Positions 397-36,986 of a DNA stretch of 58,965 bases are shown here, in pieces. The position numbers were made by a program, and so were the translations under genes. Numbering within the stretch: the stretch's first letter is position 1; every line of letters starts with the position of its first letter. The notes beneath the pieces are model-generated. The model was not told where the DNA came from. It saw only the letters and a program-made list of their open reading frames with translations, and ran no database searches. The DNA is from a virus. Lineage: Duplodnaviria; Caudoviricetes. The stretch is taken from IMG/VR virus record IMGVR_UViG_3300012210_000001, positions 1 through 58,965 of that record; one strand, written 5' to 3'.

Positions 397-3363
397 ATGC
401 CTGGTGAAATCAAATTTACACAATTACCTACGGGTAGCGCTATTACGGATGCAGATATATTCCCTTCCGTTCAATCAGGAGTTAGTGTCAAGCAACCCGG
501 TTCTGCAATAACCACTTATGCGCAAACTAAGATTACATTGCAAAATGCCTATAATGTCTCTTCACCTAAAGAAATAAAGTTTGGGTTGGGATCGGGTTTA
601 GCTTTTGTTAACTCTACCGATGATAATGTATTCATTATTTCGGATACTGCAACATCTTGCTTAGAACCATTTGTGGTATCAAAAACGGGGACGGATGGAA
701 TATCAGTCATTCAAACAACCGATCCTGATTCCACGGTATTTGAAGTAAAAAGCACTACCTATGGCAGCATTTCAGAACCCGTCATGTCTGAAATTCAAAG
801 AAATGTCATTGATATCAGTGGCACTCCTATTGGACTGGGTGTTTTTACGAATACTACTAAGACCCGAGATTATTATGATGGTACCTCCTGGCAAAAAATA
901 TTAAACACACAAAACGTCAGTGGGAGCGGCACTGTTACGGTCACTGATAATGGAGATGGCACTATTGATGTTTTTGGATCGGGAGGATCAACTACTCCCG
1001 CAGCTTCATTTGCCGCTTATTCGGTTATCAATAACTCGGCTCCCCGTCCGGCAACTACAGCATTCGGCGCTGTGCCAATCAGTTCTGGTTTCACTGATGT
1101 TAGTGACCAGAATTTCACGAGCCAGACAATGACAATTGCTGGCGTGAATACAGTGGGATCTACCTATACTGGGACTGATACGAATAATTTTCAAGTTAAT
1201 CAGTCGTGTGTATTGCGATCAACAGATACTCTTTTTAGAGAATATTATTATGCAATTGCTATTTTACGAGTGGGTGGATCAATAGAGACTACACTATTCC
1301 AGGGATATACTAATACTAATCAAACAATTTTATTCCCAGCCGCAGTGAGTTTAAATGGGATAGTTACACTATCCACTGGCGATACTGTATTTACTCAAAT
1401 AGTGTCGTTTAATAGTTCTGCAAATTCGCCAACCTATACGATTACGTCAGAAGTTTCTAGTATCGCCGGAACCGCTATTCCGACTTTTCAGGAAATTTAC
1501 GATAATGATCCCGAATACCCCGCGTCAGAAGTTAATTTGGCAACCAACGGTAGTATTCAATTTAATTATGGCTCTGACGTTTCTTTCGGGGCAGGATTAA
1601 ATGGGATAGCCAGTACATTGGGATTGCGTCTTTTACCATCAAATGGGATTGAATCAATTGAAGCTTTGGTAACGGATGATCCCACAACCGCTATATTTAC
1701 AGTAGTATCTACAATTCGCGGATCAAAACCGTTGCCGGACATGACGACAGCACAGCGTGACCTTATCTCAGGATCAAAACCAGTAGCGCTGGGTATCTAT
1801 GACATCTCTATAAATACTCCTCAGTTTTGGACTACCGATAATACTTGGATAAGCATGATCAATGATCAATATGCTCAAACCATCGGTGGTGTTAAAACAT
1901 TTTCGAGCAATATCATTGGCAATTTAACGGGTAATGCTTCCACAGCCACCAGCGCGACAAATGCCACTAATGCCGCCACAGTTTCGACTTCCACAAATGC
2001 ATCATTTTTTCCGATATTTGTCGCATCATCGAGTAACAGTAATCAGCCGTTCAACCTCGGCACTGGACTGAATTTTAATCCAAGTACGAATAATTTAACG
2101 ACTACTACTTTTACAGGCGCATTATCTGGTAATGCTTCGTCAGCAACTATCTTACAGACCGCACGGGCTATTAATGGTGTCAGTTTCAACGGGAGTGCCG
2201 ATATAACTATTACAGCGGTACCGGGAGGTTCGGCCAGCGGCGATTTATCGGGCACGTATCCTTCCCCCACCGTTGCAAAAATAAATGGTGTAACGCTCGG
2301 TAGTACAACAGCGACTTCGGGCAATCTACTGATCGGTTCCGGTACTCAGTGGGTAACGAATGCAATGAGCGGAAATGTAACCATAAATTCTACAGGTGTT
2401 ACTACCATTGGGGCTAGCCAGGTCACTAATTCAATGCTGGCAGGTAGTATTGACCTTACTTCCAAAGTGACAAACGATTTGCCATTTTCAAACGGCGGAT
2501 TCGGTTTTCATACGGCAACCACAGGGGATATTTTCTATGCTTCTGGGACCAATACACCAAATAAACTAGCGGATGTTGCTACAGGACAGGTTTTAGTCTC
2601 CGGTGGTGTTGGTGTTGTCCCCGCCTATTCCGCAACGCCCACATTAACTTCTTTAACATTGCCAAATGGGCAAGGATTAGTGTTGGGCGCTACTACTGCT
2701 AATCAATTAACTATTACTTCAGCGAGTGGTGCTGGAAATCGTGCGGATATTGTATTGAATAGAAATGACTTCACGAATGGAAATTGTCGGTTCTTCTTTC
2801 AAACAGCCACCACAAATGAATGGTCAAACGGAATGCGTGGCGGCAGTGGCGACTATCAAATTTTTGATGAAGTGAACGCTGTAACTCAATTAAGAATGAC
2901 ACAAGCTTCGGGAACCACTGCGGTTTCTACTTTCGCTGGGCAAGTAATAATTAATGGCCTGGGAGGAGTAAATTCACTTGTCGCAACGAATGCGAGTAAA
3001 CAATTAACGACTACGGTATCTGGAATTTCTCCCACTTTTACTGCACTAACCCTATCTACGGGCGATCTAACAGTCACGGGTGGCAATATATTGATTGGTA
3101 CGGCTGCGAAATCACTTTCATATAAGAGCGGCGCAAACGGATGCACAGGCACTTCTACTTTAGTAGCCGGAACCGTTTCCGTGTCCACGACAGCCGTAGC
3201 CGCAACCGATCTTATTCAGGTAATGGTTACATTAGTTGGTGGCACGCAAGGCATTATTTCGGTGCCTTCGGCCTCAATTTCCGCAGGTTCTGGATTTACA
3301 ATAAATTCATCTTTAATAGCTGACACATCGACAGTGAAATGGTGGCTATTAAAAGTAGCTTAA
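397..3363 (+). CDS. Tail fibre / receptor-binding protein
   Basis: 988 aa, rich in T/S/G. Contains the fibre motif TARAINGVSFNGSADITI and two internal repeats (M-[S/T]-xx-QR...W). Lies in the tail module. Confidence 0.8.
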   Translation: MPGEIKFTQLPTGSAITDADIFPSVQSGVSVKQPGSAITTYAQTKITLQNAYNVSSPKEIKFGLGSGLAFVNSTDDNVFIISDTATSCLEPFVVSKTGTDGISVIQTTDPDSTVFEVKSTTYGSISEPVMSEIQRNVIDISGTPIGLGVFTNTTKTRDYYDGTSWQKILNTQNVSGSGTVTVTDNGDGTIDVFGSGGSTTPAASFAAYSVINNSAPRPATTAFGAVPISSGFTDVSDQNFTSQTMTIAGVNTVGSTYTGTDTNNFQVNQSCVLRSTDTLFREYYYAIAILRVGGSIETTLFQGYTNTNQTILFPAAVSLNGIVTLSTGDTVFTQIVSFNSSANSPTYTITSEVSSIAGTAIPTFQEIYDNDPEYPASEVNLATNGSIQFNYGSDVSFGAGLNGIASTLGLRLLPSNGIESIEALVTDDPTTAIFTVVSTIRGSKPLPDMTTAQRDLISGSKPVALGIYDISINTPQFWTTDNTWISMINDQYAQTIGGVKTFSSNIIGNLTGNASTATSATNATNAATVSTSTNASFFPIFVASSSNSNQPFNLGTGLNFNPSTNNLTTTTFTGALSGNASSATILQTARAINGVSFNGSADITITAVPGGSASGDLSGTYPSPTVAKINGVTLGSTTATSGNLLIGSGTQWVTNAMSGNVTINSTGVTTIGASQVTNSMLAGSIDLTSKVTNDLPFSNGGFGFHTATTGDIFYASGTNTPNKLADVATGQVLVSGGVGVVPAYSATPTLTSLTLPNGQGLVLGATTANQLTITSASGAGNRADIVLNRNDFTNGNCRFFFQTATTNEWSNGMRGGSGDYQIFDEVNAVTQLRMTQASGTTAVSTFAGQVIINGLGGVNSLVATNASKQLTTTVSGISPTFTALTLSTGDLTVTGGNILIGTAAKSLSYKSGANGCTGTSTLVAGTVSVSTTAVAATDLIQVMVTLVGGTQGIISVPSASISAGSGFTINSSLIADTSTVKWWLLKVA

Positions 3364-3385
3364 TTAAATTATAGGAGACAATAGT

Positions 3386-3826
3386 ATGACAATTAGATGG
3401 GTAGAAGGTGCGCCACGATTTTTACAAGGGCAATATGCACCGACAACTACAGAGGCGAGTGCGAATAAGGGTGCTTTTGATTTTGGCGCATTACAATTTT
3501 TCTGGGATAGGCTCAATAGTAATGTTTATTTTTTACAATTCATGGATGGCGATAATATTCAAACATGGGCTAATTATCCGCAAGATTTAGACTCACTGGG
3601 AATAATAAGTTTCTTAACACTGATAGTCCCGTATAACGATAATTATGTGCGATGGGCAGTTTCAGACTATGACCCCACTTCAAATGAGGATATTGCGGAT
3701 AAATTTTTTGACGGCGAATTTGGCATATTATTTTGGAATCAGCCCAACGGCAAACTTTTCAAAATGACTGCTTATGAGCCAAATCCTGATGGGGGTTATA
3801 TTCAAACGTGGACACAAATTATATAG
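3386..3826 (+). CDS. Hypothetical tail-module protein with internal duplication
   Basis: Two FG..FW...IQTW repeats; GGAG RBS. Confidence 0.6.
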   Translation: MTIRWVEGAPRFLQGQYAPTTTEASANKGAFDFGALQFFWDRLNSNVYFLQFMDGDNIQTWANYPQDLDSLGIISFLTLIVPYNDNYVRWAVSDYDPTSNEDIADKFFDGEFGILFWNQPNGKLFKMTAYEPNPDGGYIQTWTQII

Positions 3827-3835
3827 GAGCAGTCT

Positions 3836-4033
3836 ATGAAACAAGTATTAAGCAATCCAATTATGGTCAATGTTGAATTAAATTTAATTCAAGATATTGT
3901 CAAAATTATCGGTCAGGCTATTCATAATAAGTTTTGTCATGATGATATTGACGCAGTTAAGCATACATTAATTAATAAAGCGCAACAAGCGATTCAAGCG
4001 CATCAGAATAATTCTGATGTTCCAGCACAGTAA
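3836..4033 (+). CDS. Hypothetical protein (possible fibre chaperone)
   Basis: AGGAG RBS; position after the fibre genes. Confidence 0.55.
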   Translation: MKQVLSNPIMVNVELNLIQDIVKIIGQAIHNKFCHDDIDAVKHTLINKAQQAIQAHQNNSDVPAQ

Positions 4034-4053
4034 TTTTTACAGGAGAAAATAGT

Positions 4054-4938
4054 ATGGCAATTTTATCTTATCAGCCTAATTTTGTAGGCGAAACCGATGT
4101 TAAGCCTCGATTAGTACGGTTAGTAGTGAATGATAGTTATGCTACATTGACGACAGCCGGATATTTAACATCATTCTTAATGAGTTCTGAACCTTTAGAA
4201 CCTACGGACTATATATTTGCAACCTACGGTGCTGATTCAACTTCTCATGCGATCTTAACACCATCTATCAGCAATGGCGTAGTCACTTTAATACCTCTAC
4301 CCATTAGTTCAGGCGATGTCTTATTGCCCGTCCTTGCGAATCATCTGGCTGTATTTACGAATACGGCAGGTCAGGTTGGCGATCCTTCAGCGACCGCTAT
4401 TCACGGTGGTAATCTTCAAGCAGGACTATCCGGTACCGCAGGTTATGTGGCTTCATTCCCTGCAACAGCCGCTAAGGGAAGCTTACATTTAACAGGGGTA
4501 GCCAACACAGGCGACACTATCACCACTATTAGCAATGCTGCGATGGGTCAAGCCAGTGTGATTTCGATTCCTGATCCAGCGGGTGCCACGGCTGATTTTG
4601 TGATCGCTCCCGCTGCTTTGGTCAATAATAACTTAGTGAAAGCAAGTGGTACAACCGGATTGGTTGCTGATACGGGTATTGCTGCTGCTGCCGTCCAACT
4701 ATCCGCTAATATTAAGTCAAATGTTTTAAGTTATGGTGGGGGTGGTACGGGGCCTTCTTTCACGATTGCGGGTCTTACAACATCCAGCATTATTTTAACT
4801 CAAATCGCTTCTTCGACTAATGTGGTTGTTATTGATAGTGCCAAAGTGACCGCTCCAGATACGCTCACACTTAATTTCAGTGCTGATCCAGGAGCAGCTA
4901 CTACAGTCAATTATATAGCGTTTGTGGTTCCACAATAA
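4054..4938 (+). CDS. Virion structural protein (decoration or fibre-like)
   Basis: A/T/G-rich beta-type composition; AGGAG RBS; located in the structural module. Confidence 0.6.
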   Translation: MAILSYQPNFVGETDVKPRLVRLVVNDSYATLTTAGYLTSFLMSSEPLEPTDYIFATYGADSTSHAILTPSISNGVVTLIPLPISSGDVLLPVLANHLAVFTNTAGQVGDPSATAIHGGNLQAGLSGTAGYVASFPATAAKGSLHLTGVANTGDTITTISNAAMGQASVISIPDPAGATADFVIAPAALVNNNLVKASGTTGLVADTGIAAAAVQLSANIKSNVLSYGGGGTGPSFTIAGLTTSSIILTQIASSTNVVVIDSAKVTAPDTLTLNFSADPGAATTVNYIAFVVPQ

Positions 4939-4947
4939 GAGGTTTTT

Positions 4948-5088
4948 ATGCCCCTTAAAAAAGGAAAAAGCCGTAAAGTCATTAATGATAATACGAAAGA
5001 AATGATTCAGGCTGGATATCGGCCTGATCAAGCTTATGCCGCGTCTATGCAAAAGGCGGGTAAAAGCAAAAAGAAAAAGAAAAAGTAA
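4948..5088 (+). CDS. Small basic phage protein of the MPLKKGKS type (46 aa), not in the ORF track
   Basis: Hand translation MPLKKGKSRKVINDNTKEMIQAGYRPDQAYAASMQKAGKSKKKKKK*; GAGG RBS; resembles a common phage family. Confidence 0.75.
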   Translation: MPLKKGKSRKVINDNTKEMIQAGYRPDQAYAASMQKAGKSKKKKKK

Positions 5089-5119
5089 TTTTTCTTTGTT
5101 TTTAAACCTATAGGAGAAA

Positions 5120-5551
5120 ATGAATATGTCTATTGCTGAATTTGGATTTGGGTTATTAGACCCATCTGCCTTGACTACGGGACTCAGTATTGCTGCTGTA
5201 AGCGGAGTGACTGGTCCATCATTAACCGGATTGCAGATCATCAAGACCAACTCGAATGTACACAATAACTTTGTGGAAATTTTGGGTACTCTATCCTTTA
5301 CAGCAACCGCTGCAACGGCAGTCCTGGATATTACCGTACCGAATGCCACGACCGATGTATTTGCCGATGCTGCTCAAGTGCAGGGTGTAGCGAATGTATT
5401 GACAGGTACGGGTTTAGGTAACTTGACCGTCTTAGTTACTACAGCCGCTACCCGGAATATTCGGGCTACCTTTGCATTAGGTAGTGGTGCGGGTGTTTAT
5501 ACGATTAATTTTGCATTTACGTTTCAAATTAATCAAGCCTTGACTCCATAA
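5120..5551 (+). CDS. Putative virion structural protein
   Basis: AGGAG RBS; T/A/G-rich. Confidence 0.55.
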   Translation: MNMSIAEFGFGLLDPSALTTGLSIAAVSGVTGPSLTGLQIIKTNSNVHNNFVEILGTLSFTATAATAVLDITVPNATTDVFADAAQVQGVANVLTGTGLGNLTVLVTTAATRNIRATFALGSGAGVYTINFAFTFQINQALTP

Positions 5552-5568
5552 TCCTGATAACACATGTT

Positions 5569-5591
5569 AGGGCGTAGTCTATATACGCCCT
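5569..5591 (+). terminator. Hairpin ending the structural operon
   Basis: agggcgta-gtctata-tacgccct, an 8-bp stem with a weak U tail. Confidence 0.45.
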
Positions 5592-5653
5592 TAAGTGTAG
5601 GAAAAATATGAATAATAGTGTAATATGTAGACTATAGACAGGACTTCTGTAAT

Positions 5654-5938
5654 ATGATACAAGATGCATATATTAATCATAAAGAAGGCAACGAATGTAT
5701 GAACAATGTCTCTATAGCTGACATAGCCAGTTTTGTCTCAATAGGTATTGCGGTTGGGAGCGTTATTTATTGGGGTGGTGGTTTGGAAAAAAGAGTAAGG
5801 GCCATTGAGAGTTGGAAGAATAACATTGATTCTCAATTAGCGCGTATAGAGAATAAGATTGACTTATCGACCACACAAACTACAGCACGTATTGATCAAT
5901 GTCAGCAGAGCCTATTGGACGCGATAATGAAGCGATAA
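5654..5938 (+). CDS. Single-TM + coiled-coil membrane protein (possible holin-like)
   Basis: Hydrophobic segment IADIASFVSIGIAVGSVIYWGG followed by a coiled coil. Confidence 0.4.
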   Translation: MIQDAYINHKEGNECMNNVSIADIASFVSIGIAVGSVIYWGGGLEKRVRAIESWKNNIDSQLARIENKIDLSTTQTTARIDQCQQSLLDAIMKR

Positions 5939-6176
5939 GTGCCGCTTTATGAACTGAAAAGTTTTTCTTTGCCGTGAGAATACTGGCTTGTAATTCTTTG
6001 AGCCGTTGTTCTCTGTTTCTATCGCGGGTTTTTAATTCCCGCATCTTCTTGAGTATATTCTGCTCATGTGCAAAATAAATCTGCTTGGCAATTTCTAATT
6101 CCGATATAATATTTTTTTTAGTCATATCTCAATACTACTTTATTTCTGTATATAAATCAAGTAGAATGTTCATTTT

Positions 6177-6249
6177 GCCGCTTTAGCTCAGTAGGTAGAA
6201 CAATTGCCTTGTAAGTAATTGGTCATCCGTTCGATTCGGATAGGCGGCT
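6177..6249 (+). tRNA. tRNA-Thr(TGT)
   Basis: Acceptor GCCGCTT/AGGCGGC, anticodon loop CTTGTAA, T-loop TTCGATT, U73. No encoded CCA; one C11-A24 mismatch in the D stem. Confidence 0.92.
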
Positions 6250-6267
6250 TTGAATGGAGAGAGAGAT

Positions 6268-7491
6268 ATGCACATTTTACCGAAATCGTCCCATGCTAAA
6301 CACATCATTAAAGCGTGGATTGATAATGTTCCGATAGATAATAAAGCGATTGAACAGCTTAATAATGTGGCTAGTCTGCCCTTTATTCACAAGCATATTG
6401 CGGTTATGCCCGATGTGCATTGGGGTATGGGGGCAACGGTGGGCAGCGTGATTCCTACTATTGGGGCAGTAGTTCCAGCAGCGGTAGGGGTTGATGTAGG
6501 ATGCGGCATGATTGCTGTCAAACTCACTTTACAAGCCTCTCAATTACCCGATAATCTGCATAATTTACGATGCGCTATTGAAGCGGCCATTCCGCATGGA
6601 CGTACCGATAATGGTGGCGTAAATGATAAGGGGGCGCGCAGCAAGCCTATTTGCGGAGAGAGTAACTCTGAATTAATACCTGATCTAGACTTAATTTTAG
6701 AAAAACATTCCTATCTTCATAAATGGAATACTGAGCGTGCATTTAGACACATGGGGACATTAGGGGGCGGCAATCATTTTATCGAATTGTGTTTAGATGA
6801 AAATCAAAACGTATGGCTTATGTTGCATTCGGGTTCACGGGGTATTGGCAATGCGCTGGGTTCTTATTTTATTGAACGTGCTAAAAAAGATATGCAGCGA
6901 TGGTTTATTAATTTACCGGATGAAGATTTAGCTTATATTCCTGAAGGCTCCGACTTATTCAATGACTATATTGAAGCCATCACATGGGCGCAGTTATATG
7001 CTGCTGCCAATCGAAAAACAATGCTTCATTATACTATGTTGGCAATTAAAGATGAACTCAATATTCACTGCTCCATAGTTGAGATGCCTATTATTAATTG
7101 CCATCATAACTATGTGACCAAAGAAAATCATTTTGGCAAGAATGTTTGGATTACCCGTAAAGGGGCCGTGCGCGCTCGCCTCGGCGATTTTGGTATAATT
7201 CCGGGGTCTATGGGCGCTAAAAGCTTTATTGTTAAAGGATTGGGAAATCCTGATTCTTTTCACAGTTGTTCTCACGGTGCTGGTCGGGTCATGAGCCGTA
7301 CCCAAGCCATTCGAGAGGTTAGCATGGAGCAGCATTTACTCGACACAATGGGAGTGGAATGTCGAAAAGATGCAAGTGTTTTAGATGAAACACCCAGAGC
7401 TTACAAAGATATTGAGGCTGTAATGGCGGCTCAAGCGGATTTGGTGGAGATAGTCCATACTTTAAAACAAATCCTTTGTATTAAAGGATAG
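6268..7491 (+). CDS. rtcB: RtcB family RNA ligase (tRNA repair)
   Basis: Motifs MPDVHWG, VGVDVGCG, GTLGGGNHFIE, LHSGSRG, HHNY, PGSMG, SHGAGR, DETPRAYK and C-terminal KG. ATG 6268 follows a GGAG RBS. Confidence 0.96.
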   Translation: MHILPKSSHAKHIIKAWIDNVPIDNKAIEQLNNVASLPFIHKHIAVMPDVHWGMGATVGSVIPTIGAVVPAAVGVDVGCGMIAVKLTLQASQLPDNLHNLRCAIEAAIPHGRTDNGGVNDKGARSKPICGESNSELIPDLDLILEKHSYLHKWNTERAFRHMGTLGGGNHFIELCLDENQNVWLMLHSGSRGIGNALGSYFIERAKKDMQRWFINLPDEDLAYIPEGSDLFNDYIEAITWAQLYAAANRKTMLHYTMLAIKDELNIHCSIVEMPIINCHHNYVTKENHFGKNVWITRKGAVRARLGDFGIIPGSMGAKSFIVKGLGNPDSFHSCSHGAGRVMSRTQAIREVSMEQHLLDTMGVECRKDASVLDETPRAYKDIEAVMAAQADLVEIVHTLKQILCIKG

Positions 7492-7518
7492 TATTTTTAT
7501 TAACATGAGGAGATTAGA

Positions 7519-8070
7519 ATGAAAAAAAGTATTATTACGGATGCTTTGGAATGGTTGGGTAAGATTATTCCAGACCACATACTCGTCAAAAGGGATGCAA
7601 TTCACTTAGCCGTTGAGCCAATGGTTGCTCAACAAGAATTACTTCCAGGACAAATCTATTATGTCGATGATAAGAAAGTGGGCATAGTTGATCCTTTCCT
7701 TGAAAATGCCGTTTCAATAGGACAGAAATTTTTACTGGTGCTTTTTCCGGGTGAAGTCTCTGTATTACGCCATGATTGGGAGCATCCTTTACTACCGAAG
7801 AATAAAGAAGATACCGAGATACTTGATCAAAAAGAAATATCCATTCTATGGATGAAACGATTTGCTATAGAGAATGGCTATTATGAAGAAGATATGGATG
7901 ATTATACTCATATTATAGAGAAGATATGTGAATTTTTAGATGGTGAAATAGACTGTATTGTTAATGGCGAGTGGGATATTACCGATACATTCTGGTATCA
8001 TTTCGAGATCATTACTGGCCGAAAGATCAAGGATGATGATCGGATTTACAATTTTCCATGCACATGTTAA
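7519..8070 (+). CDS. Conserved phage hypothetical protein
   Basis: Motifs RDAIHLAV, GIVDPFL, LRHDWEHP; strong RBS. Confidence 0.7.
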   Translation: MKKSIITDALEWLGKIIPDHILVKRDAIHLAVEPMVAQQELLPGQIYYVDDKKVGIVDPFLENAVSIGQKFLLVLFPGEVSVLRHDWEHPLLPKNKEDTEILDQKEISILWMKRFAIENGYYEEDMDDYTHIIEKICEFLDGEIDCIVNGEWDITDTFWYHFEIITGRKIKDDDRIYNFPCTC

Positions 8071-8423
8071 ACTATACTATACCCTGGGCATAGTGACTAT
8101 CAAGATTGAAACCGAAGAAGTGACAACGTTTTGCTCCGCTTCGAGGATTATAGAATGATTGAACATCAATGGGCAGATTATGAAGCCTACGAAGAACATC
8201 AAAACCCAAGCAGTGCAGAACGGTGTTATGATAACAATCCGATCAGTGTAGCAGAAAGTCATATTGAAGAGCTGGCACTTACGGGTCAATTGGATGACGT
8301 ATATGAAGACGATCAGTATATTTGCATTGTCACGAATAGAGACACCGGTGCAATTAATCGGATTGAAGTAACGCTATCGCTGGAGCATGTGACTGAGTAT
8401 CACGGTGAAGGGAAGCTTTTACT

Positions 8424-8633
8424 ATGAACAAGCATTGCAGCTATTGTGATAAAGTAGATGAGCTTAGACCTTATGGAAAAAACGCTGCACTAATATGCTT
8501 TGATTGCGGAATGCTTACAGAACATATATCGGAAACTGAGCAACAGTTTTCCTCTCAAATAGATGCGTGCATGGGGTTAACGATCATTGGCGAAGAGTCA
8601 GGGCCTAGGCCCTTCAAAACGGGTAATAACTAA
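8424..8633 (+). CDS. Small Zn-binding hypothetical protein
   Basis: CxxC...ELRPYG...ICxxC. Confidence 0.6.
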   Translation: MNKHCSYCDKVDELRPYGKNAALICFDCGMLTEHISETEQQFSSQIDACMGLTIIGEESGPRPFKTGNN

Positions 8634-8634
8634 A

Positions 8635-8667
8635 ATGAATCGCAAAATCCTTTGCGTAAAAGGGTGA
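8635..8667 (+). pseudogene. Remnant copy of the rtcB 3' end
   Basis: Translates to MNRKILCVKG*, versus RtcB end KQILCIKG*. DNA aaatcctttgcgtaaaagggtga versus aaatcctttgtattaaaggatag. Confidence 0.6.
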
Positions 8668-8689
8668 ACTGTTGCATAATATGCATTAT

Positions 8690-8763
8690 CTGGGCATAGC
8701 GTAGTCTGGTAGCGCAGGGCGTTTGGAACGCTCAGGTCGGTGGTTCAAATCCATCTGCCCAGA
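8690..8763 (+). tRNA. tRNA-Pro(TGG)
   Basis: Acceptor CTGGGCA/TGCCCAG, anticodon arm GGGCG-TTTGGAA-CGCTC, T-loop TTCAAAT, A73. Confidence 0.92.
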
Positions 8764-8774
8764 ATGAGTCCTTT

Positions 8775-8965
8775 ACCTATCGGTTCTGGATCAATCGAGG
8801 TTTATAGGCTGAACCAGCGTAGCGAATCAGCCTAATGAGCGCTAGGTTGTGCAGTCCACCCTCCGATTAAAAACTCGGTTAGAGTAGGCCACGAAAAACT
8901 GCTTCATAGGCTAATTTATTGACTGGTGTCGAATTCACTGGTACTTAAGCAATAGATTGGCCTAT
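8775..8965 (+). ncRNA. Candidate structured RNA downstream of tRNA-Pro
   Basis: Several stems: taggctga/tcagccta, gcagt/actgc, and 16-bp ataggctaatttattg/caatagattggcctat. Possible pseudoknot; no ORF. Confidence 0.45.
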
Positions 8966-8970
8966 CGAAT

Positions 8971-9564
8971 TTAATATATTGGCATATAGAACATAAATTG
9001 TCTCTTCTTAAGCCCATACAAAGGACTAGCCTTCCCTACTTCTAGTTCGCTATATCCCGGTGGGATTGGCTTAAAATATCCTGCTGCCTTTGCCGCAGCA
9101 CCGCTGTTAAAAACACCGCAGACAGTGAGTATTTTAGAAATGGGTTCAGTGCTTTTAATAATGAGAATCGGGAATGGATAGCCTATGGATTTTGGTTCAA
9201 TGGGAGTGCGTGCTATAGGAAAAGGATGGTTTATTGAATCTTTATCATAAATCTGTTTTGTATAGACTTCCGCTTCACACATAGCTAGGAGATCATATAG
9301 CATTGTATCGGCAGACAAAATCCAGATTCTATCATCACTTAATAGATATTTATTCCTTTCGGAAAGCGCATCTTCTAAATAAATAATTTTCAATCGCCTA
9401 TGACTATAGGAATCATCTTTTAGAATATAGTCCACACCATGCGTTGGTATAGCTTCTTTCTCTAATAAATATTCATAAATATGATTCTTATTAAATCCGC
9501 CAGCATATTTATAAGAATAGTTTATTGGATAATGAATAGCGCTATCCATCTTACAAGCATTCAT
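8971..9564 (-). CDS. Hypothetical protein with a possible C-terminal S4-like helical motif
   Basis: ILTVCGVFNSGAAAK...IPPGYSELEVGK resembles TyrRS/S4-type C-termini (recognised by eye). Confidence 0.45.
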   Translation of the reverse strand: MNACKMDSAIHYPINYSYKYAGGFNKNHIYEYLLEKEAIPTHGVDYILKDDSYSHRRLKIIYLEDALSERNKYLLSDDRIWILSADTMLYDLLAMCEAEVYTKQIYDKDSINHPFPIARTPIEPKSIGYPFPILIIKSTEPISKILTVCGVFNSGAAAKAAGYFKPIPPGYSELEVGKASPLYGLKKRQFMFYMPIY

Positions 9565-10179
9565 TTCATTTCTTTCTTCTTCTTGACTACCTTATATTGA
9601 AGTGGTTGAGCCTGAATGGTTTGAATGTCTAGGTTCAGATGATCGTATAGAAGTTTTAGTTTATTAAATTGTTTATCAACATATTTTTCTTCAACAAAAA
9701 CGCCTGTCTGCCAGGAATGATGTATAGTTTTAGACTCTTCAATATCCAGATATTCTTCAATCTTTCTTTTAAACTCATTTAGTTTCTTTTCAACTAAATT
9801 CTTATCAATGGAATCATTATTTTCTCGAAAAGTATTGTCATGAAGATCATTAATATCATAATGTCTTAAATCAAAATGTGAATCTAACCCCATCTTATGG
9901 GCTAAATTATTAATTACGGCAAATACTAAATTATGATTATCATTTATCCTAGCATTTGACCTATCTATTTCATGAATCAATATTAATGTTGTAATTATAA
10001 ACATAACAAGAAGTGCCGATATTATGATACAAAATATAATCATTTCTCTAATTCCTCTTTCTTAACCAATTCAACACTTGACGGAGAATTCCTAAACTCC
10101 ACGCCTAAATAATCTAATAATATTTTAAGCTTATTTGGTTTAGGATGTTTAAATTTCTTAATGCGAATTTTCTTTATTG

Positions 10180-10560
10180 TCATTTCTTATCGCCCTTATC
10201 ATCCAATTTCCGCTTAATATATTGATCATACCCATCAATCGTATCATTAATGGACTGCAATAATTTAGGTGGTAAGTCTTGAATTTGCTTATTATTGACT
10301 ATTTTGGGAAGGGCATAGATGAGCATAGCATCTTGTTTAGATGGCGTGAGAGTCCCTATCACAGTGGCAACGATGGCAATTATTCCAGTTCTATAAACAA
10401 ACTTAATGGTATTTTTACAATATACAGTATCATCTATCTGCTCAAAAACTCTAATTGTAAAAAATATAAAAGAAAATATACCGAATAAAAGAGCTATTAG
10501 TATCGAAGCAGTACTAATATTATCCAATATACTAAATAAATAAATCAACCATGCTGACAT
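10180..10560 (-). CDS. Phage membrane protein
   Basis: Two hydrophobic segments followed by a PSK motif. Confidence 0.65.
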   Translation of the reverse strand: MSAWLIYLFSILDNISTASILIALLFGIFSFIFFTIRVFEQIDDTVYCKNTIKFVYRTGIIAIVATVIGTLTPSKQDAMLIYALPKIVNNKQIQDLPPKLLQSINDTIDGYDQYIKRKLDDKGDKK

Positions 10561-11073
10561 AATGACCTCTCAGATTAAATCTGCTCCCATTGCTGAGAGC
10601 AGTTAGAATTATTTGGACTTTTTAGCTTTTGCTTTTTTGGGCGTATTTTTCTTATGTTGTTCTAATTTCAGAATCTTATCTAATCGGAATGTTTTGGCGG
10701 TTGGCTTTAAAAGCTTGTTCTGAATTAATGTAGTAGCTAGTTTCTTAAATTTATTAACAGATAGTTCCAATTCACTAACGATTAATACTCCCTTTGGAGC
10801 AATAGGCATTTCACCACCTTTAAAATTCAAAATAGTACCCGGAGATAAATTTACTTCATATCCATCTAAATAAGTCGTCAAATCTTTATAAATAACACCA
10901 ATAACTTTCTTGCTCATATTGTCTCTCTCATAATAAAAAATAAACCTATTTATCTCTATAGCAGAAATAAATAAACCCAGCGGTCATGGCTGACCCTAAT
11001 AAGTAACCAATTAATATGTTGGTCATATTCAGATAGTATGATAGTTTTGTATATATGTCAATGTTTTAGTGAA

Positions 11074-11442
11074 TTATTTTCTAGATGGTAATAAATCTTT
11101 CAATTTTTCATTTAATCTATCTTCTGGATAAGAATGTACATCGCGAGAAGAACAATAGGCTTTTTGAGCCGTGTAATATCCGTTAGGATGCATTTTTGTA
11201 TCTTCTAGTTTATGTTGTGATGCTTCCATTTCCTGAATAAGCCGATTCAAATACCAGACAGCTTTCTTATAATCCTTTAAAGCATTCTCCTTGAACGGCC
11301 CACGTGAAATATATTTAAGGGCTGTTAAGCGCAAATGACCGATGAATTCCTCATGACTTGATTTGGCTTTCATGACATCAATGACCTCAATACCGCCTAC
11401 GGTATAATGATCAGGATGGTTAATAGGGTCATGATCTTTCAT
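11074..11442 (-). CDS. DUF3310 family protein
   Basis: DPINHPDHYT.GGIEVID...ALKYISR...DYKKAVWYL. Confidence 0.85.
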   Translation of the reverse strand: MKDHDPINHPDHYTVGGIEVIDVMKAKSSHEEFIGHLRLTALKYISRGPFKENALKDYKKAVWYLNRLIQEMEASQHKLEDTKMHPNGYYTAQKAYCSSRDVHSYPEDRLNEKLKDLLPSRK

Positions 11443-11653
11443 CTAAACACTCCAATCATGTTGATTAGAACACATATACCGTGTCACTGGAGCCAACTTA
11501 ATGGGCTTCAATTGTGTTCTAGTTTCGCATTGATAGGTCAAATATTCAAGCTTTTTATTCAATTCTCTATAAGCTTCTTCATATTCTTTATTAATGACTT
11601 TGCATATTCCTTTGAAGACCTTTCCAGCGTGATCGCATTGTTGACATTGCATA

Positions 11654-11845: not shown

Positions 11846-13048
11846 TTAGATTATCCTATTAATAAGTTATTTTATAAAAAATCAATGACCTTCATAATCT
11901 TTTCATCCAGAAAAGCGACATCGTAGATATCCACATAATGATCATAATCCCCCGAATATCCAATGAATCGGTATAGCATTAAGTCATCTTCATTCATATT
12001 GAAATAATCATTGCTCCTCATTCTCTGCCTCTTCTTTAATTCTCTGTATTCGATCTTTCATACGATTACTGACCCACTCTTGTAATTCATCGGGATCCCG
12101 TCTCTTAAGATTATCCGGCAGAACATTATCTACAAAAGTAGGCCAATCTAAGGGACTGGTAAATGTATCAATCATGCTTATTCTTATCCTCTAATTCTGT
12201 GAGCCGTTCGATGATTTTCGATTGATGATGAATATACACTTCTTCATGCGCATCGAATTTCTTCTTAGTATGGTCAGCTTTTTCAGTCCATATCTGAATA
12301 TCACCTTTGACGTGAAGTTGATAACTTTCCAAGCGAATTGTTAAATCTCTGAGCTTACTTTCTATATTCTTCTGCCATTGTTTTTCAAAGCAATGCATGA
12401 AAATAAGCCCAATAAACGCCAATAATCCGGCAATACCGCACATAATTTCTAGAATTTCCATCATCATTTCTCTGCTTTTGGTTTTTTAACTTTGACACTC
12501 TTTGATTTAGGGGCCGCTTCTTTCTTAGGAGAAGATTCACAACCTATTAAATGTAAATAGTTTTGCCTAAACTCTCTGAATTCTTTCTGTAATAATTCTA
12601 ATTGAGACATTTGTGATTATAATCTCAATATCCCATTCTCAATTTCTTTTTGTTTAAGAATAAGATTGTTGCATTTGGAATCTATAATTAAGCGTGAATC
12701 ATACATTAACTTAATAATTTGATCCAAATGAATAAAATTATGAAATATACTCTTAATTTTTTTTAGCATGTTTCTTTCTCTTCCCCATATCCTCTAGCTT
12801 TGATTCAATAACTAACAATCGGTTTTCCAATTCAATGGCAAGCTGGTCAATTCCATCGCTTAAAGCATCTATTTTACTGGATGTCAGTGTGCGTATGAGT
12901 TGATCGGGCGAATGGCTATTTGTCCGTAATATTCTGTCATTTAGTTCTTTGAAGATCATCTTCATTGTTTTTCGGATCATAATTTACTCTGTATCAATCT
13001 ATAATCCGGTCATAATATTATAGTTTGATCAAAAAGTAAAGCATAAAT

Positions 13049-13101
13049 TGCATAAATAATTTCATAATGGCGTTTACTTTTGGACTATAATGCGATAGAG
13101 T
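13049..13101 (+). promoter_or_regulatory. Sigma70-type promoter of the RNA array, with upstream TGCATAAATAATTTC motif
   Basis: TTTACT (13073) - 17 nt - TAGAGT (13096); the 15-mer motif sits at 13049-13063. Confidence 0.6.
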
Positions 13102-13105
13102 AAGG

Positions 13106-13171
13106 AATGTCACATTCCCAATGGCTATAATTATAATTGTAATCATAACCCCTCCATTGGGAATGGACATT
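13106..13171 (+). ncRNA. Long hairpin at the start of the RNA array
   Basis: aatgtc-a-cattcccaatgg pairs with ccattgggaatg-gacatt: 18 bp with one bulge and a 29-nt loop. Confidence 0.5.
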
Positions 13172-13182
13172 AATTTAAGAAC

Positions 13183-13260
13183 GGGGTGGCATACGGGTGG
13201 TGACGTATTATTGGCTGAACTAGTGTAGGCGATAAGCAGAGTTCGATTCTCTGGCCCCCA
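13183..13260 (+). ncRNA. Degenerate tRNA-like RNA
   Basis: Intact T-arm CAGAG-TTCGATT-CTCTG, D-like arm ATACG/CGTAT, shortened GGGGT/GCCCC acceptor and an irregular anticodon arm. Confidence 0.55.
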
Positions 13261-13265
13261 GAATT

Positions 13266-13339
13266 GTCCCTCTGGCGGAATTGGTATACGCGGTTGGCTT
13301 AGACCCAGCTTATTAGGAGTTCGAGTCTCCTGGGGGATA
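13266..13339 (+). tRNA. tRNA-Leu(TAG) with short variable loop
   Basis: Acceptor GTCCCTC/GGGGGAT, Leu-type D arm GCGGAATTGGTATACGC, arm GTTGG-CTTAGAC-CCAGC, 5-nt variable loop, T arm AGGAG-TTCGAGT-CTCCT, A73. Confidence 0.85.
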
Positions 13340-13348
13340 TTTATATAA

Positions 13349-13387
13349 GGGCGGTTATAGTTGGTTAAAGCCCAATGCCGTCCACCA
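13349..13387 (+). ncRNA. 39-nt tRNA minihelix with alanine identity elements and encoded CCA
   Basis: GGGCGGT-TATA-GTTGG-TTAAAGC-CCAAT-GCCGTCC-A-CCA: 7-bp acceptor with G3:U70, 5-bp stem and 7-nt loop T-like arm. Confidence 0.65.
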
Positions 13388-13410
13388 AATCTATAATGGA
13401 GAACATTAAA

Positions 13411-13689
13411 ATGCCTATATTTAAAATAGATCAGGAAAAAAAACCTCTTAATCCTATAGTTACTATCACGACAGAATTATACAAAGATGGTTCAGTCGAA
13501 ATAATGGCTACATTAGATGGAGAATCTGCTCCATTATTTCTAATATATCCAAATGGCACATGGCGAACACGAAGTGGTGGACTAGCTTATACTTCATTAT
13601 TATTAGAAATGGGTTTTCAATTGGATAGTAATCGCCAATTACAAGCCATCAATGTGGATGGCAAGAAAATTGATGTTCCTTCAATGTAG
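13411..13689 (+). CDS. Hypothetical protein
   Basis: ORF track start 13375 moved to ATG 13411, which follows a GGAG RBS. Confidence 0.6.
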   Translation: MPIFKIDQEKKPLNPIVTITTELYKDGSVEIMATLDGESAPLFLIYPNGTWRTRSGGLAYTSLLLEMGFQLDSNRQLQAINVDGKKIDVPSM

Positions 13690-34678: not shown

Positions 34679-35515
34679 ATGACCATATTAATAAACTCAA
34701 TTCCCATTGAAAGTTTTAACTTTCCAGGTGGTGAATGTTCTGTAAAGATTCCTGAAATTTGCTTTGATAGGAATGCAATTACAGCTTATCTCTATTCTTC
34801 AAATGACATAATGAAATTGTTATTAACGGTTGATGCAATACGCCGAATTTATCCAATGGCTAAGATTACTTTAATTATTCCTTACTTTCCATATGCTAGA
34901 CAAGATAGAGTCTGTAATCAAGGAGAAGCTTTGAGTGTTAAAATAATGGCTAATCTAATTAATGGCTTGAATTGTGATGAAGTTATTATCTATGATCCGC
35001 ATTCTGACGTAACATCTGCATTGATTAATAATTGTCATACTGTCGATTCCTTGAAGTTAATTAATGGTAGTATATTATTCAATACTATTGAAGATGATCA
35101 AAATTTAATATTTATCTCTCCTGATAATGGAGCAGAAAAGAAAGTTAGAAATATAGCAAAATATTTTAATCGCCGTATGATATGTGCAACTAAAGTAAGG
35201 GATATAGCAACGGGTGAGATTATAGATACTCATATTATGTTGCGGGATCATATTATAGTTAATCCAAATCAAAATTTGCTCATTATTGATGATATTTGTG
35301 ATGGTGGAAGAACATTTATTGAAATTGCTAAGAAATTAGTAGCACAAAGACCAAAAGGTAATCTCTATCTGTATGTTACTCATGGCATATTTTCTAAAGG
35401 TTTAGACCCATTAAAAGAGTACTTCAATAAAGTATTTTGCTATCATACTATGTTGCCTTCAGATAGAATTGACCGAGATTTTTTAACTATTATTGGAGAG
35501 AGACATGCTGATTAA
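34679..35515 (+). CDS. Prs-like pyrophosphokinase; candidate ADPR-PP synthase (Adps) of NARP1
   Basis: FPGGE, IPYFPYARQDR, DPHS, SPDNGA, K.RD..TG.I, IIDDICDGGRTF, YVTHGIFSKG. Confidence 0.88.
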   Translation: MTILINSIPIESFNFPGGECSVKIPEICFDRNAITAYLYSSNDIMKLLLTVDAIRRIYPMAKITLIIPYFPYARQDRVCNQGEALSVKIMANLINGLNCDEVIIYDPHSDVTSALINNCHTVDSLKLINGSILFNTIEDDQNLIFISPDNGAEKKVRNIAKYFNRRMICATKVRDIATGEIIDTHIMLRDHIIVNPNQNLLIIDDICDGGRTFIEIAKKLVAQRPKGNLYLYVTHGIFSKGLDPLKEYFNKVFCYHTMLPSDRIDRDFLTIIGERHAD

Positions 35516-36986
35516 TGCATTAAATGCAATTGATTTCTATAAAACTGATCATCGCAGACAATATCCGGCTGGCACAACAGAGGTATATGCTAACTTTACC
35601 CCGAGAAGTGATCATTATGCAAATATGGGAATTGATTTTGACCATCATATTATATTCTTTGGATTGCAATATTTTATTCTGGATTATCTAATCGGAAATT
35701 GGAGTCAAACATTCTTTCGTTTACGCAAAAGCGTAGCCATTTCTGCTTATAAAAGGCGCATGGATTTTGCATTAGGAGAAGATGCCATCCGTATGGAGCA
35801 TATTGAAGCGTTGCATGATCTAGGATATTTACCATTGAAAATTAAAGCACTTCCTGAAGGCACGCGAGTACCCATTGGTGTGCCAGTATTGACTATATTA
35901 AATACCCATCCTGATTTCTTCTGGCTGACTAATTATATTGAGTCTGTTTTATCTTGTTATTTGTGGAAACCAATTACTTCAGCCACTATTGCATTTCAAT
36001 ATAGAAAACTCTTGACTCAATATGCACTGAAAACGCATAGTTCTTTAGATTTTGTTCCATTTCAAGCGCATGATTTCTCTTTCAGGGGACTTAGTGGGCC
36101 TCAAGATGCAGCAAGTAGTGGAGCGGCTCATTTAACGTCTTTCGTAGGCACGGATACGGTTCTAGCAATAGATTTTCATGAATACTATTATGGTGCTGAT
36201 GCGGAAATAGAGTTAATCGGTTGTTCTGTTCCGGCTACTGAACATTCAGTAATGTGTATGGGCATGGAGGATGGAGAATTGAATACCTTTAGGCGACTAA
36301 TCAATGACATCTATCCATCCGGTATTGTCTCTATTGTCTCGGATACATGGGATTTCTGGAAAGTGATTACTGAATATACAGTAGAGCTTAAGCAAGATAT
36401 ATTGCAGCGTAATGGTAAGGTAGTATTAAGACCAGACTCAGGTGATCCCATTAAAATTATATGTGGTGATCCAGAAGCCGAAAAATACAGCCCTCAATAT
36501 AAAGGTGCTGTTCAATGTTTATGGGAAGTATTCGGTGGTGAAACTAGAAATGGATACAGTCATTTAGATAGTCATATTGGTTTAATCTATGGCGATTCAA
36601 TTACATTAGATCGTGCTGAAATGATTTTAAAGGGATTAGCTAATAAAGGATTCGCCTCCGATAATATCGTATTTGGAGTGGGTTCATATACCTACCAACA
36701 TGTAACGCGCGATACATTCGGATGGGCAGTAAAAACAACTAGTGGAAAGGTTGGTAATGAGCGTAGGGATATATTTAAAGACCCTAAAACAGATTCCGGG
36801 ACTAAGCGGTCAGCTAAGGGATTATTGAGAATAGATTATAATGAGCAGGGAAAACTTGCTTTATTTGATCAACAAACGCTTGAACAAGAGAATACTGGAA
36901 AATTAGAAACGATATTCTTGAATGGAAGCCTTAAGATTAGTACTACACTTCAAGAGATTAGAGAACGAATAAAGGAACAATTATGA
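35505..36986 (+). CDS. Nampt-like protein; candidate nicotinamide ADPR-transferase (Namat) of NARP1
   Basis: DFYKTDHRRQYP, HDFSFRG, GTDT, SVPATEHSVMC, SIVSDTWD, RPDSGDP, IYGDSIT, KDPKTDSG. Overlaps the Prs-like gene. Confidence 0.9.
   Translation: MLINALNAIDFYKTDHRRQYPAGTTEVYANFTPRSDHYANMGIDFDHHIIFFGLQYFILDYLIGNWSQTFFRLRKSVAISAYKRRMDFALGEDAIRMEHIEALHDLGYLPLKIKALPEGTRVPIGVPVLTILNTHPDFFWLTNYIESVLSCYLWKPITSATIAFQYRKLLTQYALKTHSSLDFVPFQAHDFSFRGLSGPQDAASSGAAHLTSFVGTDTVLAIDFHEYYYGADAEIELIGCSVPATEHSVMCMGMEDGELNTFRRLINDIYPSGIVSIVSDTWDFWKVITEYTVELKQDILQRNGKVVLRPDSGDPIKIICGDPEAEKYSPQYKGAVQCLWEVFGGETRNGYSHLDSHIGLIYGDSITLDRAEMILKGLANKGFASDNIVFGVGSYTYQHVTRDTFGWAVKTTSGKVGNERRDIFKDPKTDSGTKRSAKGLLRIDYNEQGKLALFDQQTLEQENTGKLETIFLNGSLKISTTLQEIRERIKEQL

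Follow-up and report, generated by a model that had tools for sequence, protein, structure and literature searches.

A 39-nucleotide tRNA-derived minihelix with alanine-type acceptor features in a phage tRNA array

Sequence and fold of the minihelix

The Caudoviricetes record IMGVR_UViG_3300012210_000001, analyzed here over its full length of 58,965 bp and referred to as the window, is a complete virus record with terminal repeats and a CheckV completeness of 100%. The single sequencing run that matches it, probably its source, is labelled soil metagenome and contains one identical contig, without variants. A divergent intergenic region carries a small tRNA array, and its third unit, at 13349-13387 on the plus strand, is a 39-nt gene that resembles a tRNA minihelix, in which an acceptor stem is joined through a short linker to a T-like arm. 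The original prediction had described this element as a natural, non-decoding minihelix with full alanine identity and a possible role as a decoy. Its sequence and layout are confirmed letter for letter, and the fold has now been computed.

Read 5' to 3', the element consists of GGGCGGT (13349-13355), TATA (13356-13359), GTTGG, TTAAAGC and CCAAT (together 13360-13376), GCCGTCC (13377-13383), and A followed by CCA (13384-13387). The first segment is the 5' strand of the acceptor stem, with G3 at 13351, and pairs at seven of seven positions with the 3' strand at 13377-13383, where U70 lies at 13381. The acceptor pairs are G1:C72, G2:C71, G3:U70, C4:G69, G5:C68, G6:C67 and U7:G66. The TATA linker is unpaired in the fold and replaces positions 8-48 of a tRNA; its first two bases, TA, match the usual U8-A9 at positions 8-9 of many tRNAs. 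The T-like arm has a 5-bp stem (G49:U65, two U:A pairs, G:C and G53:C61) and a 7-nt loop, and the gene ends in the discriminator A73 (A13384) and a genome-encoded CCA.

When the minihelix is folded alone, the minimum free energy and centroid structures are the same stacked minihelix with a 4-nt bulge (-15.3 kcal/mol, z = -2.55), and one of 200 shuffles folds as stably. The fold is unchanged when 13262-13425 is folded together with the cloverleaf of the upstream tRNA-Leu. The reverse complement is less stable (-10.7 kcal/mol, z = -0.9), as would be expected with three G:U pairs turned into A-C mismatches, and the structure therefore belongs to the plus-strand RNA.

Standard tRNA finders miss the minihelix, as had been expected. 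None of four ARAGORN modes (default, relaxed with -ps80, intron, mitochondrial) calls it, and a scan of 12950-13450 gives no match to it at E <= 10 with the Rfam tRNA model (RF00005) or the transfer-messenger RNA (tmRNA) clan. It does not form a canonical cloverleaf: only 4 nt separate the acceptor 5' strand from the T stem, with neither a D arm nor an anticodon arm.

The notion of a chance hairpin draws on a bare descriptor (7 bp, 2-6 nt linker, 5 bp, 7-nt loop, NCCA), which matches once in the window, with the CCA of the minihelix, and also finds matches in 12 of 200 dinucleotide shuffles of the window (mean 0.06). With CCA, the same descriptor has three matches in 2.4 Mb of loci sampled via two neighboring genes, none of them T-arm-like. 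Beyond the descriptor, the minihelix has GGG/UCC with G3:U70, A73, T54, T55, A58 and G53:C61. Because several tRNA-specific features are combined, and because the element lies 9 nt downstream of a same-strand tRNA, a chance origin is not credible. An intrinsic terminator is contradicted by the lack of a T-run (AATCTATAATGG follows the minihelix) and by the absence of the element from the list of terminator-like sites, and the strand-specific fold argues against both. Either origin would be extremely improbable. The minihelix is clearly tRNA-derived, and its sequence, fold and array position bear out the description of an acceptor/T-arm minihelix without an anticodon.

Alanine determinants, T-loop and CCA end

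In bacteria, the alanine identity set is A73, G2-C71, G3.U70, G4-C69 and G20, the last two being minor; G3:U70 is the major determinant for the alanyl-tRNA synthetase (AlaRS) and is effective in minihelices (PMC9976931). The element has G3.U70 (G13351:T13381), A73 (A13384) and G2-C71 (G13350:C13382). Position 4:69 is C:G, and without a D-loop there is no G20, so that full alanine identity is an overstatement that holds for the first three determinants only.

The T-loop keeps T54, T55, A57 and A58, and position 56 is an A instead of the consensus C. Among 663 phage tRNAs with a placeable T-loop, this position is C in 649 and A in 2. C56 pairs with the D-loop in a full tRNA, and the minihelix, having no D-loop, lacks the usual partner of position 56.

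The encoded CCA is found in none of the three ordinary tRNA genes of the window, as the original prediction had stated: tRNA-Thr ends in T-TTG, tRNA-Pro in A-ATG and tRNA-Leu in A-TTT. It is also missing from all seven tRNAs of Sak4-related loci (0/10 in the lineage). The phage tRNAs of loci sampled with the RNA ligase RtcB encode CCA in 117 of 131 cases.

The element has the layout of a minimal RNase P substrate, with an acceptor stem, a T stem-loop, a 9-nt leader after tRNA-Leu, and ACCA. Hairpins of acceptor stem, T stem and T-loop are cut efficiently by RNase P at the canonical site (PMC11143913). Under the published rules for processing and identity (PMC11143913, PMC9976931), both RNase P cleavage and alanylation of the minihelix are plausible.

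The array and its genome context

The middle unit of the array is a tRNA-Leu(UAG) at 13266-13339 on the plus strand (Rfam tRNA, 52 bits; ARAGORN, 13265-13340). The spacing of 9 nt given for the minihelix agrees with the Rfam end at 13339; ARAGORN places the end at 13340. This tRNA is a tRNA-Leu by its UAG anticodon, is 74 nt long and has a variable loop of 5 nt. Bacterial tRNA-Leu normally has a long variable arm.

The first unit, at 13181-13261 on the plus strand, is a degenerate tRNA-like element that is called only by relaxed ARAGORN, as 'Ser(tga)'. Default ARAGORN does not call it, and Rfam gives no match at E <= 10. Its T arm is canonical (stem CAGAG/CTCTG, loop TTCGATT), its acceptor is irregular and its anticodon arm is weak. 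RNAfold gives a cloverleaf-like structure with a bulged acceptor stem (z = -0.9).

A promoter-like site, GTCACA-17-TATAAT (10/12, 13109-13137, plus strand), could drive the array and the downstream open reading frames (ORFs). It comes from a consensus scan only, which found nine such sites in the region where 6.7 are expected, and is hence weak evidence. An inverted repeat of ~17 bp, ATGTCACATTCCCAATGG ... CCATTGGGAATGGACAT, at 13107-13170, overlaps this best promoter-like site and looks like an operator; an Rfam microRNA-family match at the repeat was rejected as spurious.

On the other side of the minihelix, a Shine-Dalgarno sequence, GGAGAA (13398-13403), precedes a 92-aa ORF on the plus strand (13398-13689 including the Shine-Dalgarno), identified by translation of the open frame. 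Its ATG at 13411 is 23 nt downstream of the minihelix CCA. The ORF has no family match and no relative in IMG/VR. The terminator scan finds no terminator-like site from the array to this ORF, and from this arrangement the minihelix and the ORF are probably co-transcribed.

Two further ordinary tRNA genes without CCA, tRNA-Thr (6177-6249) and tRNA-Pro(UGG) (8689-8764), lie elsewhere in the window. The RtcB RNA ligase gene comes directly after tRNA-Thr (6177-7491, plus strand), and its true start is probably ATG 6269 behind GGAGAGAGAG, rather than TTG 6250. The 80 IMG/VR loci sampled with the window RtcB hold 160 called tRNA genes (163 tRNA/tmRNA calls when the three of the window are included), so phage RtcB is commonly found in or near tRNA arrays. 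Adjoining genes at 34679-36986 on the plus strand encode a ribose-phosphate pyrophosphokinase (Prs) and a nicotinamide phosphoribosyltransferase (NAMPT). They form an NAD-salvage pair, a type of gene combination associated with counter-defence against systems that deplete NAD.

Relatives and searches for homologues

The window phage has few relatives. Its TerL reaches no more than 30% identity in GenBank phages, and the only close relatives found are two IMG/VR fragments, L081 (TerL, 79%) and L292 (RtcB, 71%). L292 is syntenic with window positions 2491-11499 and stops 1.85 kb short of the minihelix, and the L081 record does not include the locus. The tRNA-Pro(UGG) of L292 (6546-6620) and that of the window have identical T arms and show compensatory differences in their acceptor and anticodon stems. 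L292 also lacks the tRNA-Thr of the window, and its tRNA-Pro is placed differently, directly after RtcB. These comparisons indicate that the lineage keeps working tRNAs under structural selection and that its tRNA content turns over.

Searches for the minihelix itself were negative in every collection. In GenBank phages, blastn with 13100-13500 gave no match, a 48-mer gave two short matches, both due to chance, and in tblastn the first downstream ORF had no match and the second matched four distant, non-syntenic records. In IMG/VR, the acceptor-stem pattern was found in 11 stretches, all GC-rich and without a T-arm-like middle or an adjoining tRNA. A pattern of the tRNA-Leu anticodon loop and T arm had no match, and the T-arm 17-mer had two, neither flanked by pairing acceptor strands. 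A generic alanine-minihelix pattern returned at least 117 rows from IMG/VR, and among the matches listed none has 7 + 5 pairs at a 4-nt linker. Two scans of representative bacterial genomes gave no match and then one without pairing acceptor strands. No comparable element was seen in 160 loci of Sak4-like relatives (46-63% identity), and no second copy or homologue in 3.7 Mb of sampled sequence, mostly viral contigs, with 865 called tRNA/tmRNA genes. In this last scan, L341 and 33 other rows lie inside called tRNAs and were set aside. A 5-nt-linker match in L270 is really a 77-nt tmRNA-like element, a match in L274, on a GC-rich contig, lies in an apparent open frame and coincides with no more than a weak beta_tmRNA match, and one in L156 has neither CCA nor tRNA context.

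The original prediction had named a lack of homologues with compensatory changes as evidence against itself, and by that measure the outcome counts against its idea. Homologues are missing because the relatives do not cover the locus, and this absence is not a sampled negative.

Anticodon-less acceptor RNAs in other viruses

The statement that no phage-encoded example had been described proves too strong, since a tmRNA of mycobacteriophage DS6A, which lacks a coding sequence and is termed 'TLD-only' (tRNA-like domain only), is reported to inhibit the endogenous tmRNA in E. coli (PMC4131195, PMC11915505). The DS6A gene (L375, 28478-28560; Rfam tmRNA, 43.2 bits) aligns to model positions 1-374 with the 312-nt body exchanged for 20 nt, and it ends in ACTA. 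At least four further IMG/VR loci with genes of this type surfaced while generic pattern matches were being filtered: L259 (5625-5704, 80 nt, Rfam tmRNA 62.3 bits), L180 (4193-4265, 73 nt, Rfam tmRNA 56.5 bits), L257 (3550-3625, minus strand, 76 nt, 27.8 bits), which lies within a large tRNA array, and L270 (550-626, minus strand, 77 nt, 25.3 bits), which lies within an array of 12 tRNAs. ARAGORN calls none of the five, and Rfam aligns both ends of each with the body deleted. As far as literature searches show, only the gene of DS6A is in print. Phages thus do carry anticodon-less, alanine-type acceptor RNAs.

Two look-alike elements, in L203 (1078-1145, plus strand, 68 nt) and L290 (7131-7195, minus strand, 65 nt), have no Rfam match at E <= 0.05. 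Their layout is the same: an acceptor stem that begins GGGCG and has G3:U70 is followed by a brief unpaired stretch, a small hairpin and GGAAC, and then by a canonical T arm and ACCA. Between the two, the acceptor and T stems show compensatory changes, and neither locus has a called tRNA. The acceptor start GGGCG/CGTCC is common to both and to the window minihelix. A 55-nt element in L274 (6776-6830, plus strand) has an acceptor with G3:U70, a 5-bp/4-nt hairpin, a T arm and ACCA, and overlaps a beta_tmRNA match of 18.7 bits; a tmRNA fragment of att type and a chance match are both conceivable origins.

Sites in viral contigs that combine a T arm, U70 and ACCA fall outside called tRNA and tmRNA genes in 24 of 93 cases. 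In eight of these 24, a 5' strand that starts with GG and pairs fully lies within 45 nt, where about 0.5 would be expected by an estimate of chance. In the 80 RtcB loci, six orphan T arms lie within 100 nt of a same-strand called tRNA, the two of the window itself being excluded. In RtcB-linked arrays, orphan canonical T arms beside called tRNAs occur in L334 (20355-20371 and 21135-21151, minus strand), L346 (1702-1718, plus strand), L308 (686-740, plus strand) and L323 (7337-7353, minus strand). ARAGORN does not report any of these arms, although several continue into an acceptor-like strand with CCA, and they could be non-canonical tRNAs or remnants.

An RtcB gene is common to DS6A, the L257 record and the window phage. 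An association of TLD-like elements with RtcB is not established; the gene is present in one of five records with such elements, and that record is the sole one that is at least 90% complete. TLD-only tmRNA-like genes recur in viral contigs, at times in tRNA arrays or in genomes with RtcB, and are maybe the more solid lead.

Comparison with known RNAs

The TLD-only tmRNAs are like the minihelix in being phage-encoded, with a G3:U70 and A73 acceptor stem and a T arm, and in lacking an anticodon and a tag frame. They are 73-83 nt long, with a D-loop analogue, a short P2 helix and a canonical T-loop, whereas the minihelix has 39 nt and none of these. In a ten-row comparison, the distance from the acceptor strand to the T stem is 4 nt in the minihelix and 20-48 nt in the TLD-only RNAs. 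TLD-only tmRNAs align with both ends of the Rfam tmRNA model (25-62 bits), which has no match in the minihelix at E <= 10, and the DS6A RNA has no encoded CCA. The minihelix is therefore not a member of the TLD-only class by any test run, and it is shorter than any described anticodon-less alanine-type phage RNA. Full tmRNA (RF00023) also has alanine identity at its acceptor end and a T arm without an anticodon; unlike it, the minihelix has no mRNA-like domain, pseudoknots or D-loop analogue, and it is not called by ARAGORN or Rfam.

The minihelix-Ala of Francklyn and Schimmel (1989) is said to have been a laboratory construct with a continuous 12-bp helix. Synthetic minihelix-Ala, an AlaRS substrate, likewise places an acceptor stem on a T stem-loop, with G3:U70, A73 and CCA (PMC9976931), and the window element is unlike it in being genome-encoded and in having a 4-nt bulge between the stems, C4:G69 and A56. 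The model RNase P hairpins of McClain, Guerrier-Takada and Altman (1987) share the acceptor and T stem-loop, a 3' RCCA and a 5' leader (PMC11143913); they are synthetic, and the window minihelix is a natural, predicted substrate. tRNA pseudogenes and fragments are similarly tRNA-derived and non-decoding and lie beside intact tRNA genes, and those published arise via element integration or CRISPR-Cas activity (PMC9897764). In contrast to these fragments, the minihelix keeps both acceptor strands in perfect pairing, and there is no tyrosine integrase. At the level of search listings, the literature yielded no relevant paper on a phage minihelix or tRNA-like decoy.

Origin and possible function

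The reading favored here, with moderate confidence, is that the minihelix is a neutral deletion remnant, any RNase P and AlaRS activities being by-products. Its parent would be an alanine-type tRNA, or the tRNA domain of a tmRNA-like RNA, of which the acceptor stem and T arm are left. An internal deletion probably took positions ~10-46, and with them the D and anticodon arms and most of the variable loop. The remnant would now stand third in a small tRNA array that has partly decayed. It may be transcribed together with tRNA-Leu, because there is no terminator between them. Host RNase P would cut before G13349, as an acceptor stem with a T stem-loop and RCCA is the classical minimal substrate. 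Once the 3' end had been trimmed to CCA, AlaRS could charge the RNA, because its major determinant, G3:U70, works in minihelices (PMC9976931). Fast tRNA turnover favors a remnant, as seen in the degenerate neighbor at 13181-13261, the tRNA differences with L292 and the orphan T arms, and so does the TA at the start of the linker, in keeping with an origin from a full tRNA. Position 56 of the T-loop has departed from consensus, and the element is a singleton, although recurrence would be expected of a device under selection. The CCA could come from a parent gene acquired horizontally, since this end is common in other phage tRNAs (117/131). There is no evidence of selection on the minihelix.

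Several observations weigh the other way. All 12 base pairs are intact despite at least one changed loop position, and the CCA is unique locally, none of the three window tRNAs or the seven Sak4-related ones encoding it. Alanine is the one identity without need of an anticodon, and tRNA-Ala is a minority, which makes it a coincidence for a random remnant. For both arms to remain perfect, each end of the deletion must also have been placed to within a few bases. TLD-only tmRNAs are retained in phages (DS6A and at least four IMG/VR contigs, two of them in tRNA arrays), and this phage has other genes of counter-defence type, RtcB and the Prs-NAMPT pair. Very many windows were surveyed, so that an occasional striking neutral remnant is expected, and this tempers the coincidences. 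The same observations, with the intact helices, G3:U70, A73, G2:C71 and the phage's investment in tRNA repair and NAD salvage, lend some support to a non-decoding, alanine-accepting RNA under selection. It would be a minimal analogue of TLD-only tmRNAs, cut by RNase P, ending in CCA, charged by AlaRS and acting via its acceptor end. Its precedent is the RNA of DS6A, a reported inhibitor (PMC11915505, PMC4131195), with L259, L180, L257 and L270 as further examples. Such an RNA might be a competing substrate for defences or toxins that target the acceptor, T arm or CCA, or a sink for AlaRS or EF-Tu. This proposal is tentative: the element is a singleton, with no homologue and no covariation, and it lacks the D-loop analogue and P2 helix that TLD-only RNAs keep, which makes titration of SmpB, the only mechanism suggested in print, unlikely. 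The tmRNA model does not match it, position 4:69 differs from the bacterial determinant, and no RNA run is among the sequencing runs listed for the window. The functional interpretation of the original prediction is likewise no more than plausible, and none of the roles it proposed (decoy, sponge for EF-Tu or SmpB, peptidyl acceptor, alanine donor) gained support here; the observation behind it is confirmed as real and unusual. A 39-nt, RNase P-matured, alanine-charged decoy, kept by selection, that soaks up defences against CCA or aminoacyl ends, or ties up AlaRS or EF-Tu, is less probable than a neutral remnant, and its targets would be, for example, Cas12a3-type tail nucleases or CCA-modifying toxins.

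Two other readings are less likely. In hosts where CCA-less tRNAs are matured by RNase Z, this enzyme is blocked by an encoded CCA, and the helix might for this reason be retained on the downstream message. RNase P cutting at G13349 would then free the mRNA, and the helix would stay as a protective 5' stem-loop. The minihelix follows the last tRNA and lies 23 nt before the ATG of an ORF that has a good Shine-Dalgarno sequence, with no terminator-like site in between. This position is consistent with such a processing or stability element, as are the minimal RNase P substrate shape (PMC11143913) and the presence of CCA on the minihelix only and not on the three tRNAs. Any stable hairpin would serve this purpose, however, leaving G3:U70 and the T-loop-like loop superfluous. 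The 2.4 Mb of related loci contain no comparable elements, and this role appears improbable. Less probable by far is an attP-type segment copied from the 3' end of a host tRNA or tmRNA gene, with the upstream strand pairing by chance. Uncalled sites with a T arm, acceptor 3' strand and ACCA are common in viral contigs (the 24 of 93 above), which is in its favor. The complete record, however, has no match to the tyrosine integrase family PF00589 in a search that did not extend to serine recombinases, and the 23-nt 3' part of the element has no exact match in representative genomes of 185,579 species. A non-canonical T-loop would be unlikely in a working host gene, and pairing of seven out of seven upstream bases at one short distance, in an element that lies in a tRNA array, is improbable by chance.

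Implications

Even as a remnant, the minihelix shows how one deletion can convert a tRNA gene into a potential substrate of RNase P and AlaRS that is invisible to gene finders. If it is made and selected, it would be a natural equivalent of the laboratory minihelix-Ala and the smallest natural aminoacyl-acceptor RNA, and the phage would be exploiting the anticodon-independent alanine system for a non-decoding acceptor RNA. It would also be a simple candidate for an RNA decoy against defences that hit tRNA 3' ends. The minihelix would then be an extreme member of a wider, largely unstudied set of anticodon-less alanine-type phage RNAs that includes the TLD-only tmRNAs.

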